Made by a program: the position numbers and the translations under genes. The notes under the pieces are model-generated. The model did no database searches. It worked only from the letters and a program-made list of their open reading frames with translations, and was not told where the DNA came from. This document shows, one piece after another, positions 469 to 5,236 of a stretch of DNA of 57,892 nucleotides. Each line of letters begins with the position of its first letter. Position 1 is the stretch's first letter. The stretch is from an uncultured Candidatus Saccharibacteria bacterium (GTDB lineage Bacteria; Patescibacteriota; Minisyncoccia; UBA6257; Colwellbacteraceae). The stretch covers positions 1 to 57,892 of the forward strand of contig CAZMCG010000001.1 of assembly GCA_964565105.1 (NCBI GenBank), given 5' to 3'.

Positions 469-1542
469 ATGGAAACAATCCTTGTCAGAATAAATTTAGA
501 TATTAAAGAGCAGGATTTCCAAAATACATTAAGGTTTCATTTGGCGGCGTCTCTTATAAAATCGCTTTCAAAAAAAAATAACAAACTTGTTGTTTTAAGT
601 CATGCGGGTAGGCCTAGCGGCAGAGAAGAAAAGTTAAGCCTCCGCGCCTTTGCGGGGCCACTTGCTAGAAAAAGCGGAAAAGAAATGGTTTTTTTTCCAA
701 AGTTTGATTTTAAGGAAATCAGAGAAAATATAAAAGACGCCCCCAGTGGTTCCGTTTTTTTACTGGAAAATCTCCGCTTTTTACCCGGTGAGACAAGGGC
801 AAGTGAGAGTCTTGCAAAAAAACTTGCGAGCTTGGGTGATGAATTTATAAATAATGATTTTGCAACAGCTCACCGCAATGGAGCGTCAATAACAGCAATC
901 ACAAGATATATTCCTTCAAAAGCCGGTGAGCTTCTCAAAAATGAAATGAAAGTGCTAAGTAGAGTGACAAAAAAACCGAAACGCCCTTTTGTTCTTATCG
1001 TTGGCGGAGCGAAAATAGAGGATAAGGTAGGTGTTATAAAATACCTCCTTCCTATAGTTGACCATGTCCTTGTTGGTGGGAGAGTTGGTAACACATTTCT
1101 AAAAGCAGAGGGAGTTGATATTAACGATTCTATATATCAAAAATCAATGATTTTAAAAGCAAAACGCTTTATCAAAAGTGGTAAGATTATAATACCAACG
1201 GATAGTGTTATAGAAGATGGAAAATTTCTTGATATTGGGCCTGAAACACAAAAAGAATATATGAAAATTATAAAAACCGCAAAAACAATCATTTGGGGAG
1301 GCCCTATGGGATATTTTGAGAAAGAAAAGTTTGCGAAGGGGACGCAAGTCGTCGCAAGGGCAGTTCTCGCAAACAAAAAGGCCGACATTGTTGTAGGCGG
1401 AGCTCAAACAGTTTACGCACTCCTTGGTAGGGCAACGAGGCAAGAACGGGGGAACATATTTCTGTCAACGGGTGGCGGGGCGATGCTCAACTTTTTAGCA
1501 GGCGAAAAACTTCCGGCAATAGAAGTGTTAAAAAATAAATAG
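469..1542 (+). CDS. pgk: Phosphoglycerate kinase
   Basis: 357-aa ORF with PGK hallmarks: LENLRFLPGE, GGAKIEDKVGVI and C-terminal STGGGAML. Confidence 0.95.
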   Translation: METILVRINLDIKEQDFQNTLRFHLAASLIKSLSKKNNKLVVLSHAGRPSGREEKLSLRAFAGPLARKSGKEMVFFPKFDFKEIRENIKDAPSGSVFLLENLRFLPGETRASESLAKKLASLGDEFINNDFATAHRNGASITAITRYIPSKAGELLKNEMKVLSRVTKKPKRPFVLIVGGAKIEDKVGVIKYLLPIVDHVLVGGRVGNTFLKAEGVDINDSIYQKSMILKAKRFIKSGKIIIPTDSVIEDGKFLDIGPETQKEYMKIIKTAKTIIWGGPMGYFEKEKFAKGTQVVARAVLANKKADIVVGGAQTVYALLGRATRQERGNIFLSTGGGAMLNFLAGEKLPAIEVLKNK

Positions 1543-1576
1543 CTATTTAAAAGCTTCTTTTTTATTTTATAAGACT

Positions 1577-2452
1577 ATGACAAAAGAAAATATAATCTTA
1601 TATCACGCAAATTGTTCGGATGGATTTGGGGGGGCGTGGGTAGCTCATAAAAAATTTGAAGATGAAGCTGATTATATTGGAATAACCCACCAGGACAGCC
1701 CACCTGAAAATTTAGGTGGTAAGAGTGTCTATATGATAGATATTGTTTTTGATAAAAGGAATATAGATAAACTTCTCAAAGAAGTAAAATCTCTTGTTGT
1801 TATAGATCATCATATAACTATGGAAGATGTGGTAAAAAGTGTGCCGAACCACGTATATGCGGTGGAAAATTCAGGAGCAGTTTTAGCGTGGAAATATTTT
1901 TTCCCAGATAAAAAGGTTCCACTTTTTCTAGAGTATATAGAAGATGGTGATTTATGGAATTTTGACTTACCTCGCTCAGAGGATTTTTATTCGTTTATAC
2001 CCACAATTCCGTTTGAATTTGATAAATGGGACAAATTAGCGGAAGAATTTGAGAATGAGAGTAAGCGTAAATTGTTTTTAGATTATGGGAAAAGTATACG
2101 CGATCAGCAAGATAAAATGATCGAAGAGCTATTAGAAGAGGCAGAAGAGGTTATTTTTGAAAACTATTCTGCGCTTGCCTTGAGCTCTGTCGCGCTACAA
2201 TCTAAACTTGGAAACGCAATAATTACAAAAGGATATGATATAGGAATAATATGGAATAACCTGGATGACGATGTTATAAAAGTATCTTTAAGGTCAAATA
2301 AAAACGGTAATGTTGATGTTGGGGCGATAGCTAAAAAATATGGGGGTGGTGGGCACCAATCTGCTGCGGGCTTTGTGTTGGGGCAATCAGAGGAATTTCC
2401 GTGGCAGGCAACACAAGTAAAAAGTAAAAATGAAAAAGGTAAAAGTAAGTGA
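1577..2452 (+). CDS. DHH/DHHA1-family phosphoesterase (NrnA-like)
   Basis: 291-aa ORF with the VVIDHH (DHH) motif and GGGGHQSAAGF (DHHA1) motif. Confidence 0.85.
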   Translation: MTKENIILYHANCSDGFGGAWVAHKKFEDEADYIGITHQDSPPENLGGKSVYMIDIVFDKRNIDKLLKEVKSLVVIDHHITMEDVVKSVPNHVYAVENSGAVLAWKYFFPDKKVPLFLEYIEDGDLWNFDLPRSEDFYSFIPTIPFEFDKWDKLAEEFENESKRKLFLDYGKSIRDQQDKMIEELLEEAEEVIFENYSALALSSVALQSKLGNAIITKGYDIGIIWNNLDDDVIKVSLRSNKNGNVDVGAIAKKYGGGGHQSAAGFVLGQSEEFPWQATQVKSKNEKGKSK

Positions 2453-2553: not shown

Positions 2554-2904
2554 ATGGCAAATGAACTACAAGCACGAATATATACCTGGGTACTTAACCT
2601 AGTAAACTTTATCGACAGTTTATCTAAAGATTCCAGCGCAAGGATTATGGCCAACCAGTTATTAAGAAGTGGGACGAGTGTCGGGGCAAATTATGTTGAA
2701 TCTCAGGCTGGATCATCGAGGAAAGATTTCGCAAATTTTCTTCACATATCACTTAAATCTGCAAACGAGAGTAAATATTAGCTTAAACTTTTGCGAGATA
2801 CCGAGAAAGGAGACAAGAAAATTATTGAAGAACTATTGGGAGAGCTGGAAGAAATTAGCAAGATATTAGCTTCAAGTATAATTACAACAAAGAGTAAAAA
2901 ATAA
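2554..2904 (+). pseudogene. Four-helix-bundle protein (23S rRNA intervening-sequence protein family) interrupted by an in-frame TAG
   Basis: The ORF reads ...QLLRSGTSVGANYVESQ...SLKSANESKY then TAG (2779-2781). It continues in frame as LKLLRDTEKG...SKK to TAA at 2902-2904. The TAG sits where this family has a conserved Trp (E-x-x-Y-W-L-x-LL). Confidence 0.7.
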
Positions 2905-2977
2905 TTTTTACTTTTTCGTTTTAACTTTTATCTTAGTTTTTACTTCTCCATTTTGACTTTTGCCTTATAATAAACTT

Positions 2978-3382
2978 ATGCTTAAGTTTATTATCTATAC
3001 AGATGGCGGTTCACGCGGTAACCCTGGTCCGTCGGCAATTGGTGCTGTTGTCGGACATAAGGAGTACGGAGAGCAAATCGGGCATGCCACGAACAATGTT
3101 GCCGAATACAAGGCAGTAGTTCTTGCTTTAAAAAAAGCAAAACAACTTTTGACTAAAAAGGTTGCCAAAGAAACTAATGTAGAGCTCCGCACTGACAGCG
3201 AGCTTTTGGTAAAACAATTAAACGGTGAATACAAAATCAAGGACGCCGACCTCCAACCGCTATTTCTGGAAGTCTGGAACCTTAGGATTGATTTCAAAAG
3301 CGTGACCTTCAAGCATATCACCCGCGACAAAAACAAAAAGGCGGACTCTCTAGTAAACAAGGCTCTTAACACTCTTTTATAA
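2978..3382 (+). CDS. rnhA: Ribonuclease HI
   Basis: Contains YTDGGSRGNPGPSAIGAV, NNVAEYKA and a C-terminal DKNKKADSLVN. The ATG at 2978 is preferred over the TTG at 2960. Confidence 0.9.
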   Translation: MLKFIIYTDGGSRGNPGPSAIGAVVGHKEYGEQIGHATNNVAEYKAVVLALKKAKQLLTKKVAKETNVELRTDSELLVKQLNGEYKIKDADLQPLFLEVWNLRIDFKSVTFKHITRDKNKKADSLVNKALNTLL

Positions 3383-3475
3383 GAGTCGCAGTCTCTATCT
3401 AAAAAGGTGGATCGGATGTTGAATACGCTAGTTTAAATAAAAAAATTACCTGACAATAGTCAAGCAACTTTTTTA

Positions 3476-4165
3476 GAAGGCAATTCATAAGCCGGATTCT
3501 GTTCCGATTTTGTCCGAAGTAATGAGGATACAAAATCGAGAACCCTTCCATAGCTCGTTAGAGCGACGGAGGGTATCTGCCCCACTTCGCCAAAGGCTTC
3601 GCGGGACGCTCAATTTTGTTACCACTCGTAAACTCGTGAACAAAATTGGCGATAGTAATTTATCTGGGCCTTTGATTACTCGCAGGCTCTGTGCGGCACT
3701 CCTCTCCGCCAAAGGCGGAGGGTACGGCCTTGCACCCAAGTAAGGATTTAGCCGTTTCATCCTGGCCTTATTACCCCTATAGCCAGGTAAAGCCATCAAC
3801 GTTGGGATAGGGCTCCCTACTTCCTTTCGGAACTAGGCGTTACTGTTCGCACCTCTATACTTTCGCACGACGGGTGTTACCTCCTAAATCTTTGCTTACG
3901 CAAAAATCGGACCCGACTTCTGTAAACAGAAGTTTAGGGCGCTACCATTGCCAATGCTCCGCATTGGAATTTCGAAGCTTTAGTTTCTAATTTCAAATAA
4001 GCTTTATCGAAACTCGAATTTCAAAATTCGTCATTCCAGTGCGAAGTACTGGCTGGGTGTCCGGACTTTCCTCTCTGTCTGTAAATTGTGTCTCCGGGTA
4101 TAAAGAACAGTCGCAAACTGCGAACTTGGAGAACAAAAGACAGAGCTACTACCTGAATTACCTCC
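3476..4165 (-). ncRNA. rnpB: RNase P RNA (bacterial type), unusually long at about 690 nt
   Basis: On the minus strand: GAGGAAAGUCCGG (4061-4073), ACAGAAUCCGGCUUAU (3487-3502) and AGUGCCGCACAGAG (3687-3700). P1 pairs GGAGGUAAUUC (4155-4165) with GAAUUGCCUUC (3476-3486). There are many GNRA/UUCG-type hairpins and no credible ORF. Confidence 0.85.
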
Positions 4166-4171
4166 AGCGAT

Positions 4172-4200
4172 TTTATACCACAAGATAAGGACGATTTCAA
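4172..4200 (-). promoter_or_regulatory. Sigma70-like promoter for rnpB
   Basis: On the minus strand: TTGAAA (4195-4200), 17 nt, TATAAA (4172-4177), placed 6 nt upstream of the inferred P1 5' end. Confidence 0.55.
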
Positions 4201-4258
4201 CCTTATGTACTGGTTTTTGTTTATATGTAGCAGAGGTGTCGGAGTTCAGTACTTGCAC

Positions 4259-4390
4259 AAACCAACCAATTTAATAATCACGGGCGTGATTGATGGTGTT
4301 TTGATAAATCCGAAGGGAGAGCTCTATGTTGTGGATTACAAAACAACTTCAAAAAACAACGAGGTGTTTTTAGACGCGGATAAGTCGCAC
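4259..4390 (+). pseudogene. Remnant of a PD-(D/E)XK (RecB/Cas4-like) nuclease, central fragment only
   Basis: The peptide KPTNLIITGVIDGVLINPKGELYVVDYKTTSKNNEVFLDADKSH carries the D...(D/E)xK core. There is no N-terminal part (rnpB promoter lies upstream) and no C-terminal QxxxY part (it runs into the convergent methyltransferase gene). Confidence 0.45.
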
Positions 4391-4391
4391 T

Positions 4392-5141
4392 CTATCTTAA
4401 CGCCCCTGGGCGCTTGGAGCTCCAATCAAAAAGCGTTACGGCGAGCGACGCCGCTACATTTAACGATTCAAGTTGTGAGTGCGTTGGTATTGCAAGCAAC
4501 TCATCACAAAGCTCTCTGGTTTTTTGTCGAATCCCCTTGGCCTCGTTTCCTATTATAAAAACCGACGGTTCATCATACGATTCCTCATTGATTGTTTTCA
4601 CTGCTTCTCCGTCCAACCCATAAATGCGGAATCCTTTATCTTTTAAATCACGGATGGTCATGTTTACATTTGGTATTTCCACAATTGGCACACGAAATGC
4701 CATCCCCGCAGAAACTTTCACAACAGCACCCGTAACGGGGGATTGGTTGTGCCTTGGCATCAATACTCCCGATGCGCCAAATCCTGCGGACGAACGGATT
4801 ATCGCGCCGACATTGTGCGGATCTTCTATCTCACCTAAAAGTACCAATGCGTTGTCGGGACCAATTTCTAACTTGCGGATAAAGTCATCATACTGCAGTA
4901 CTAATTTATCTAAAGAAATTCTTCCAATTACCCCCTGATGCACATCAGAATTTTTTACCCCCTGAGTGTTTTTACCGGAGCCAAGGGGGGACAAAGAAAC
5001 ATTTGCGTTATCAATTGCCTCACGCAAGTTTTTGTCTTTATTATTCTTGGCAAGAAAAACCTTATCTACAGCATACGGAGCGTTAAGAAGCGCTTCCATA
5101 AGTGCGTGCCTCCCATAAATAAATATCTTATTTTGTTTCAT
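4392..5141 (-). CDS. TrmH/SpoU-family RNA 2'-O-methyltransferase (RlmB-like)
   Basis: Contains IEDPHNVGAIIRSSAGFG, IIGNEAKGI and SLNVAASLAVTLF motifs. GGAGG lies 6 nt upstream of the ATG at 5141. Confidence 0.85.
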   Translation of the reverse strand: MKQNKIFIYGRHALMEALLNAPYAVDKVFLAKNNKDKNLREAIDNANVSLSPLGSGKNTQGVKNSDVHQGVIGRISLDKLVLQYDDFIRKLEIGPDNALVLLGEIEDPHNVGAIIRSSAGFGASGVLMPRHNQSPVTGAVVKVSAGMAFRVPIVEIPNVNMTIRDLKDKGFRIYGLDGEAVKTINEESYDEPSVFIIGNEAKGIRQKTRELCDELLAIPTHSQLESLNVAASLAVTLFDWSSKRPGALR

Positions 5142-5236
5142 AGCTTCACCTCCAAACATAACAAAAAACACCCCCCATCGTAAAGATAAGGTTGAAAAAG
5201 TCAGTGAATTGTTGCAGTTTAGATAATATACTTAAG

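Follow-up and report, generated by a model that had tools for sequence, protein, structure and literature searches.

The window analysed here is the whole stretch of 57,892 nucleotides (nt) from contig CAZMCG010000001.1 of an uncultured Candidatus Saccharibacteria bacterium. It carries on its minus strand a large gene for the RNase P RNA (rnpB), 692 nt in length. One peripheral helix of this RNA is tipped by a palindromic hairpin, here named E1, and comparison of its copies shows it, as judged from the alignments, to be a copy of a discrete element family present in helix tips of the 16S ribosomal RNA (rRNA), the 23S rRNA and the RNase P RNA. A further copy lies in the 23S rRNA gene of the same genome, and the same comparison shows that, within this lineage, E1 has passed between these two genes by movement or copying. 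The account favoured here, regarded as quite probable when taken whole, also takes this region of the window to be the one RNase P RNA gene of the organism, functional and with a class A-type core.

The RNase P RNA gene

The RNase P RNA of bacteria is a universal ribozyme, usually 330-420 nt long and considered structurally conservative. In a permissive Rfam search confined to positions 3300-4350, the class A model RF00010 (model positions 1-367) matches the minus strand at 3473-4164 from end to end, with an E value of 5e-11 and a score of 40.6 bits. The gathering score of RF00010, 100 bits, is not reached, and an Rfam search of the whole window at the gathering threshold returned two tRNAs only and no RNase P RNA. 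The shortfall arises because of insertions of ~300 nt and a skipped specificity domain (S-domain), which cmscan passed over as a local end; the S-domain helices were named by manual comparison with relatives. A preliminary description of this DNA had proposed an RNase P RNA gene of ~690 nt with a well-paired P1 at about 3476-4165. Size, P1 and position agree with the alignment, and the reading is corrected as to the strand of the gene, which is the minus strand. The conserved P4 strands that it named are both in the cmscan alignment; the sequence AGUGCCGCACAGAG, taken there to be J11/12-like, proved to be the 3' strand of P15 together with J15/18. The features of the gene and its flanks are as follows.

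3473-4164, minus strand: rnpB, RNase P RNA gene, class A-derived, 692 nt (RF00010 full-length alignment)
4164-4155 pairing with 3486-3477, minus strand: P1 (cmscan alignment)
4061-4073, minus strand: P4 5' strand, GAGGAAAGUCCGG (cmscan alignment)
3488-3502, minus strand: P4 3' strand, ACAGAAUCCGGCUUA (cmscan alignment)
3695-3729, minus strand: P15 (GGC/GCC) with a short 7-bp P16 hairpin at 3720-3704 (cmscan alignment)
3668-3687, minus strand: P18 (cmscan alignment)
3816-3837, minus strand: short P12 of 9 bp with a GAAA loop (manual alignment with relatives G023 and G020)
3761-3787, minus strand: conserved hairpin CCUGGC/GCCAGG with loop AGGGGUAAUAA, downstream of P12 (manual alignment with G023 and G020)
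4172-4200, minus strand: promoter-like TTGAAA (4200-4195), 17-nt spacer ending in TGG, and TATAAA (4177-4172) (sequence reading)
3439-3464, minus strand: terminator-like hairpin CUUGAC-UAUU-GUCAGG followed by UAAUUUUUUU (sequence reading)

The core is complete in the alignment (P1-P5, both P4 strands, P15 and P18), and the P4 strands (GAGGAAAGUCCGG ... ACAGAAnCCGGCUUA) lie inside P1/P2 as in class A. Two other class A features are missing. The cmscan alignment contains neither P17 nor the P6 pseudoknot in the window rnpB, which departs from the class A P15-P16-P17 arrangement, and L15 reads AGGAGU, not the GGU that is the tRNA CCA motif. The hairpin downstream of P12 shows a compensatory change, CCUGGC/GCCAGG in the window against CUCUGC/GCAGAG in G023, the closest relative and a member of a sister genus. 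The window genome, G000, is a metagenome-assembled genome (MAG) of 578 kb in 40 contigs, 97.8% complete, from a small-genome bacterium of candidate phyla radiation (Parcubacteria) type, and it holds a single rnpB locus. The protein partner is encoded elsewhere in the genome by rnpA (PF00825 at 42 bits, an intact open reading frame (ORF) of ~104 aa); recoding of rnpA by an in-frame TAG was considered and rejected, the TAG being located upstream of the ORF.

The promoter-like sequence ends 7 nt 5' of the first base of P1, its -10 element is TG-extended, and the same TTGAAA-N17(..TGG)-TATAAA pattern stands upstream of rnpB in G023, in agreement with the promoter first described. A consensus promoter scanner did not call it because its -10 hexamer is without the final T. 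The terminator-like hairpin at 3439-3464 was not listed by a terminator scanner; the G023 gene has a clear GC-rich terminator at the equivalent place.

Location of the additional sequence

The ~300 extra nt of the window rnpB are helix-tip expansions, namely an extended P3, E1, E3 and E2.

4073-4145, minus strand: extended P3, a basal 8 bp (4145-4138 with 4080-4073) and ~57 nt of distal hairpins (cmscan)
3950-4053, minus strand: E1, a 102-nt two-unit palindromic hairpin and a closing G-C pair, at the tip of a P5.1-like helix between P5 and P7
4052-4036, minus strand: E1 5' unit, CCAGUACUUCGCACUGG
4035-3968, minus strand: E1 AT-rich interior
3967-3951, minus strand: E1 3' unit, CCAAUGCGGAGCAUUGG
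3883-3932, minus strand: E3, CUUCUG-UUUA-CAGAAG (3932-3917) and a GUAA-capped 9-bp hairpin (3910-3883), at P8 (comparison with relatives)
3504-3650, minus strand: E2, a three-hairpin module of 147 nt between the P2 3' and P4 3' strands, at the P19 position (cmscan, model R1)

Mapping of the expanded helices with RF00010, as proposed at the outset, places insertions in the P3 loop (49 nt) and at the P19 position (~130 nt). An equally long P3 is present in ~12 family members, in which the P4 5' strand starts at ~80-90, and is a family trait. E3 is missing in all relatives compared, where P7 runs directly into GCGGGUAAC; no further copy was detected in the genome or in the fetched loci, and E3 is unique to this lineage. 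A short native hairpin between P5 and P7 (P5.1-like) is found in nearly every rnpB of the order and is, by lineage, a generic stem-loop, a single 17-nt palindromic unit, E1 or E2. Because almost all relatives have this short native hairpin at the site, E1 and E2 are read as expansions of existing helix tips. A class A core would have been enlarged to ~690 nt by self-folding modules at peripheral helix tips, and such modules would leave the P1-P5/P15/P18 catalytic core undisturbed.

Element E1 and its copy in the 23S rRNA gene

The AT-rich segment at 3966-4033, singled out in the preliminary description as a compositionally distinct insertion, is the distal part of the 104-nt hairpin at 3950-4053. 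Its GC content is 29%, against 47% for the gene. The hairpin has a minimum free energy of -37.6 kcal/mol (z = -5.5). A BLAST search against the genome located a second copy on another contig (G000:C4:6168-6269), with 83% identity over 93 nt and an E value of 2e-10; it also folds as a long hairpin (z about -5.4). This copy lies in sense orientation inside the 23S rRNA gene (locus L043, 2723-7125), and flank mapping places it at the tip of helix H88, between nt ~2396 and ~2424 of Escherichia coli 23S rRNA. Homology between the rnpB and 23S copies is confined precisely to the hairpin, from one boundary to the other, and the rnpB site of relatives holds a short native hairpin; both points bear out the reading of the segment as an insertion. 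The interiors of the two copies are 79% identical, whereas the 95th percentile of all pairs is 68%. The transfer within this lineage is concluded because these two copies are mutual closest relatives. The E1 units occur in this genome only in these two copies.

The earlier interpretation, an oversized rnpB with an inserted AT-rich segment, is supported. It had missed two points: the insert belongs to a repeated family, and the 147 nt that precede the P4 3' strand form another recurrent module. Over 3300-4350 the permissive Rfam search gave only chance matches of miRNA or sRNA type to E1 (E 0.16-2.7) and none to E2. The inserts show no agreement with group I or group II introns. When metagenomes were scanned with an 18-mer specific to the window, all the matches were chance ones, in coding DNA of no relation.

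The 23S rRNA gene of this genome is itself enlarged, with 4403 nt (L043 2723-7125) against 2925 nt in the model. It contains a group I intron (L043 6540-6842, near E. coli nt ~2593) and extra sequence of ~105-300 nt at no fewer than six other places (E. coli 270-422, 543-668, 869-936, 1157-1600, 1704-1770 and H88). Of these, only the H88 insert is E1.

Distribution of E1 in the order

The survey covered 401 genomes from 251 genera of this Parcubacteria-type order and used the 3' terminus CCAATGCGGAGCATTGG as query, with at most one mismatch. The terminus is present in 33 of the 401 genomes and 31 of the 251 genera; the reversed pattern, used as a control, had 0 matches in the 401 genomes. The rRNA sites were placed by mapping the flanks onto E. 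coli rRNA. Two-unit copies number 27, range from 38 to 206 nt and occupy 12 sites: H6 and H10 in 16S rRNA; the leader, ~nt 229, H25, H45, H63, H88 and H98 in 23S rRNA; and P3, the P5.1-like helix and P16 in rnpB. In the sense strand of the host the order of the units is fixed in 27 of 27 copies, with the G-type unit (CCAGUGC-nnn-GCACUGG) on the 5' side and the A-type unit (CCAAUGC-nnn-GCAUUGG) on the 3' side, and all 16 rRNA copies with BLAST anchors align plus/plus on E. coli rRNA. The 17-nt termini are 95-96% conserved; the interiors have a median pairwise identity of 51%.

In G023, E1 replaces the P16 hairpin and the P5.1 site holds E2 instead; the P16 position is likewise taken by E1 in G047, G033 and others. 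The P5.1-like site used in the window is occupied by E1 in the independent genomes G078, G401 and G216. Copies at H25 and H45 of G406 have interiors that are 97% identical, and one pair across hosts and families (rnpB P16 of G047 and 16S H10 of G192) reaches 86%. Single 17-nt units serve as helix caps in rnpB of G329, G053 and G033 and in 23S H25 of G374. Judged from these comparisons, the pattern is that of a mobile or copy-converted cassette and not of independently evolved helices, because the termini are conserved, the interiors vary, copies of the same genome are nearest to each other, and the sister genus carries E1 at another site. A family shared by rRNA and rnpB appears to be unpublished; in the literature no report was found of an rRNA insertion family that is also present in RNase P RNA.

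Two deviating copies were recorded. At the P5.1 site of rnpB in G381 (L088) a variant of E1 has units CCUUGUGCUUCGCACAAGG and an AT-rich interior, and in G216 (L053) a minimal form of 38 nt consists of two units joined by UAAA. A scan of 185,579 species with the 17-mer was uninformative outside the candidate phyla radiation (CPR), with ~70 chance matches expected in 596 Gb. Exact CCAATGCGGAGCATTGG was seen in several genomes of the Pseudomonas syringae group (L124, L136, L144, L156, L157, L175, L191 and L195), where it may be a Pseudomonas repetitive extragenic palindromic (REP) sequence, unrelated to the CPR element as far as known.

RNA structure of E1

The two units can pair with each other in a long basal stem, in which 88% of cells are paired and 21-22 bp are conserved, and which continues into the interior. 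The covariation score of this stem is 0.219, against 0.100 in shuffled alignments (0 of 500 reach the observed value), and the central triplets of the units co-vary (UUC/GRA, UCC/GGA and GUA/UAC). Two irregularities of the stem, a C.A mismatch at bp 14 and a G.U pair at bp 4, each persist in 24 of 25 copies; the reason is that every unit can also fold on itself as a near-perfect local hairpin. Since the units pair either locally or with each other, both folds of E1 are possible. In 17 of 21 elements the sense strand gives a more stable fold than the antisense strand (Wilcoxon p = 0.002). Together with the fixed orientation, this bias speaks for selection on the RNA, or else for a mechanism that is specific to one strand.

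Origin of E1

Several observations weigh against the favoured account. The Rfam score is far under the gathering threshold, and the S-domain helices were assigned by manual comparison. The nearest relatives compared belong to other genera, and many of the E1 copies are phylogenetically non-independent. Each unit also forms a local hairpin (98.6% paired; one compensatory change from C-G to U-A), which makes the fold ambiguous, and the conserved C.A mismatch and G.U pair could be antideterminants for RNase III. The low score of 40.6 bits and the origin of the genome as a 40-contig MAG would also suit a decaying rnpB pseudogene or an assembly chimera of rnpB and 23S sequence. This explanation is exceedingly improbable: the locus is the sole rnpB of a 97.8%-complete genome, its core strands and P1 are intact, its promoter is conserved and RnpA is intact. 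A collapsed repeat is ruled out by the 17% of positions at which the E1 copies of this genome differ, and the independent genomes G078, G401 and G216 have E1 at the same rnpB site. It is also very improbable that the long hairpins evolved locally, without mobility, and resemble each other through convergence of low-complexity AT-rich sequence. The interiors are indeed of low complexity and self-complementary, and short native hairpins occupy the same sites. Convergence would nevertheless have to account for termini of 17 nt that are 95-96% identical over 12 unrelated host sites in more than 12 families, with a shared asymmetric arrangement of G-type and A-type units; for the absence of matches to the reversed pattern; for a sister genus with E1 at a different rnpB helix; for interiors 79-97% identical between different sites of one genome; and for termini restricted to 8% of genomes.

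A DNA transposon resembling a REP doublet (REPIN) or a miniature inverted-repeat transposable element (MITE) would consist of two inverted REP-like palindromes, moved by a Y1 transposase of the REP-associated tyrosine transposase (RAYT) or IS200 type and tolerated in RNA genes. E1 has this layout, in that two short palindromes in inverted order enclose a spacer and form a long hairpin, and single units occur elsewhere; the genome encodes a RAYT-like Y1 transposase with HUH and YxHxNP motifs; and Y1_Tnp genes are present in 17 of 31 E1-bearing genomes as against 9 of 33 E1-free genomes (Fisher p = 0.04). REPINs differ in having many extragenic copies and a RAYT gene flanked by cognate palindromes. 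Every genuine E1 copy is found within a 16S, 23S or rnpB gene, with no intergenic example; there are 1-3 copies per genome and two in this one, both in RNA genes. The Y1 gene is missing in 14 of the 31 E1 carriers, the RAYT-like gene of this genome is flanked by another palindrome family (CACAGG-N5-CCTGTG), the E1 units occur nowhere else in the genome, and no target-site duplications were seen at E1. A transposon of this kind is unlikely on this balance. E1 might move between helix tips capped by its units through recombination at short homologies or through gene conversion.

The RAYT/IS200-like Y1 transposase gene (G000:C3:25223-25876; L083 1300-1953) encodes 217 aa. With eight CACAGG-N5-CCTGTG palindromes in the 578-kb genome it constitutes a small REP/RAYT-like system in a CPR genome.

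Fate of E1 in the RNase P RNA

Intervening sequences (IVSs) in rRNA are known from Salmonella, Leptospira, Campylobacter and Coxiella. E1 resembles them as a hairpin of ~100-190 nt at helix tips that include H25, H45 and 16S H6/H10, in its sporadic distribution across the phylogeny, in its long basal duplex and in a host with RNase III, which is encoded in this genome (G000:C5:20510-20785; PF00636, 85 bits). It is an extra hairpin at the tip of a stable-RNA helix, missing in most relatives, and its duplex is of a length fit for RNase III. It differs in that the family is also present in RNase P RNA, in its near-invariant, oriented, palindromic 17-nt termini and in having no ORF. H25 and H45 of 23S rRNA are the classical sites of excised IVSs (PMC11270868). 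Tsurumaki et al. (2024) described short, ORF-less, non-intron insertions in CPR rRNA at IVS sites as 'probably' IVSs of the RNase III type; their study did not extend to RNase P RNA, and the hairpin termini are unmentioned (PMC11270868).

Like an rRNA IVS, E1 would be part of the precursor transcript, and the near-perfect duplex at its base (at least 21 bp) would be a substrate of the genome's RNase III. Excision would yield two fragments, about nt 1-115 and about nt 210-692, and leave a two-piece RNase P RNA held by P1, P2, P4 and P5; we give this outcome a little less than an even chance. The further proposal that E1 represents an undescribed class of stable-RNA-gene element, an oriented two-unit palindromic hairpin cassette that moves between 16S, 23S and rnpB helix tips and is removed by RNase III-type excision to give a two-piece RNase P RNA, is put forward as rather doubtful.

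The alternative, held slightly less likely than excision, is that E1 is retained as an expansion segment. It is held equally likely in its wider form, in which E1 and E2 both persist in the mature RNase P RNA and are neutral, stabilising, or a platform for a protein shared by ribosome and RNase P. The helices H25, H45, H63, H98, 16S H6 and H10 are surface helices that tolerate expansion segments in other organisms, and these are the rRNA sites of E1 that accord with retention. The strict orientation, the conserved C.A and G.U positions and the near-invariant units resemble a recognition surface and not generic double-stranded RNA, the G.U enrichment of the sense strand fits selection on a persistent RNA structure, and the single units in rnpB of G329, G053 and G033 and in 23S H25 of G374 are ordinary helix caps. 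Against retention, nearly perfect double-stranded RNA of ~40-45 bp is normally cut where RNase III is present, as its gene is here; no candidate binding protein for E1 was identified; and H25 and H45 are sites from which IVSs are classically excised (PMC11270868).

The second recurrent module, E2

The sequence plan of E2 is GCCAAUUUUGU-hairpin-ACAAAAUUGAGCGUCCCG...GGGUUCUCGAUUUUGU-hairpin-ACAAAAUCGG. Six copies from five genomes were aligned; compensatory changes are seen in 15 of the 36 predicted pairs, and hairpins A and B are clearly supported. The covariance model R1, built from these six aligned copies, scores the window E2 at 112 bits and has matches in 70 of the 401 genomes. The strong matches lie inside rnpB, mostly at the P5.1-like or P19 site; E2 is present at both P5.1 and P19 in G023 and G042, and inside P12 in G028. 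In G010 the P5.1 site carries a simple 'proto-E2' hairpin. Loci were fetched for the best-scoring E2 matches, 30 in all, and not one of them aligns to E. coli rRNA. Weaker, clearly homologous copies stand alone in intergenic DNA upstream of unrelated operons, and in three genomes they lie co-oriented and directly 5' of genes, as follows.

L104, 1501-1618: stand-alone E2-like element before rpsL-rpsG
L110, 1501-1607: stand-alone E2-like element before mraZ-mraW
L112, 1501-1648: stand-alone E2-like element before rplJ

These elements could be leader-embedded repeats. A role of E2 as the leader of one specific gene was ruled out, as the stand-alone copies precede rpsL, mraZ and rplJ. Because copies occur at several rnpB positions and in intergenic DNA, E2 behaves in these comparisons as a dispersed structured repeat that repeatedly colonises the helix tips of rnpB. 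A partial E2-like element in the window genome, at G000:C22 ~3385-3485, reads AGAGCGUCCCG...CCUCGAUUUUGU-hairpin-ACAAAAUCGGG and scores 37 bits with R1. It lies within a stretch of ~1.2 kb (2671-3887) without an ORF of at least 70 aa and may be part of another non-coding RNA.

Vioque reportedly described, in 1997, short tandemly repeated repetitive (STRR) sequences inside P12 of rnpB in heterocyst-forming cyanobacteria. They are comparable in that a genomic repeat family sits in a peripheral helix of rnpB without destroying its function. They differ in being tandem heptamers in one helix; E1 and E2, by contrast, are separate structured modules placed at several helices, and E1 occurs in rRNA as well.

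Comparison with other RNase P RNAs

For the size comparison 41 relatives were used, one per genus. All 41 have rnpB, with lengths of ~320 to 788 nt, mostly 320-500, and in 25 of them the gene is below the Rfam cut-off. The two P4 strands are 570 nt apart in the window gene; most relatives have a distance of 260-361 nt, and two others have 422 and 709 nt. Wider sampling gave at least six other genomes of the order with an rnpB as large or larger; P4-to-P4 distances are 744 nt in G069, 690 nt in G176, 621 nt in G381 and 620 nt in G142. Two large genes are described in full.

L040 (G023:C10), 1024-1816, minus strand: rnpB of G023, 793 nt, with E2 at P5.1 and P19 and E1 at P16
L008 (G028:C25), 1501-2288, plus strand: rnpB of G028, 788 nt, with E2 inside P12 and an E1-like element at P16

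Candida glabrata RPR1, at ~1.1 kb, is a very large eukaryotic RNase P RNA. Such RNAs likewise combine a conserved core with big peripheral insertions; they belong to another domain of life, and we know of no element family that they share with rRNA. Lui et al. (2021) reported that the RNase P RNAs of CPR bacteria have diverged and score under model thresholds, with P13, P14, P16, P17 and the CCA-binding motif lost and with large helix extensions (PMC8172020). In view of that report and of the other giants in the order, oversize as such is a known, sporadic trait of CPR lineages. The extreme length first claimed for the window gene stands, with that qualification. The window RNA agrees with the diverged CPR class A forms in P1-P5, both P4 strands, P7-P12, P15, P18 and an RnpA partner, in its score below the Rfam threshold, in being without P13/P14-type helices and P17/P6, and in its large helix extensions. 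It differs in its length of 692 nt, in the P5.1-like hairpin position (a class B-like feature), in the module at the P19 position, and in that its extensions are copies of recurrent element families and not just idiosyncratic helices.

Genomic neighbourhood

The neighbours of rnpB are genes for PGK, a DHH-family protein, a protein of the 23S_rRNA_IVP family and RNase HI (2960-3382), a PD-(D/E)XK fragment, and a SpoU methyltransferase.

2554-2904, plus strand: 23S_rRNA_IVP family (four-helix bundle), one in-frame TAG (PF05635, E 8e-21 with the TAG read through)
4205-~4390, plus strand: short ORF with a PD-(D/E)XK match of 21.3 bits (cut-off 22), partly overlapping the SpoU gene on the other strand
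4392-5171, minus strand: SpoU methyltransferase

Genes of the 23S_rRNA_IVP family are named for being encoded in rRNA IVSs. The one in the window lies ~570 nt from rnpB; no link between it and E1 was found, and among the E1 loci there was no long, ORF-bearing E1 encoding such a protein. A spacing of 657 nt between units in L069, considered as a long E1, was resolved into a single unit at H25 and a normal E1 at H45. The ORF at 4205-~4390 is probably a gene remnant. It corresponds to the nuclease-gene remnant noted by the promoter in the preliminary description, for which the sub-threshold match is the only sign; the rearrangement that it was thought to hint at is unsupported.

Implications

The odd RNase P RNAs of CPR bacteria and their insertion-riddled rRNA genes are both known and have so far been treated separately. 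One element family of strictly fixed orientation in 16S rRNA, 23S rRNA and RNase P RNA, with signs of recent copying between the 23S and rnpB genes of a single genome, joins the two phenomena and offers a concrete mechanism for RNA growth, modular tip insertion by recurrent elements. Such insertions explain why covariance models miss rnpB genes, and missed genes bear on annotation and on checks of genome completeness. If E1 is excised, the RNase P RNA of this organism would be a naturally fragmented bacterial ribozyme. The activity of a fragmented RNase P RNA, and what recognises the 17-nt units, become directly testable questions.

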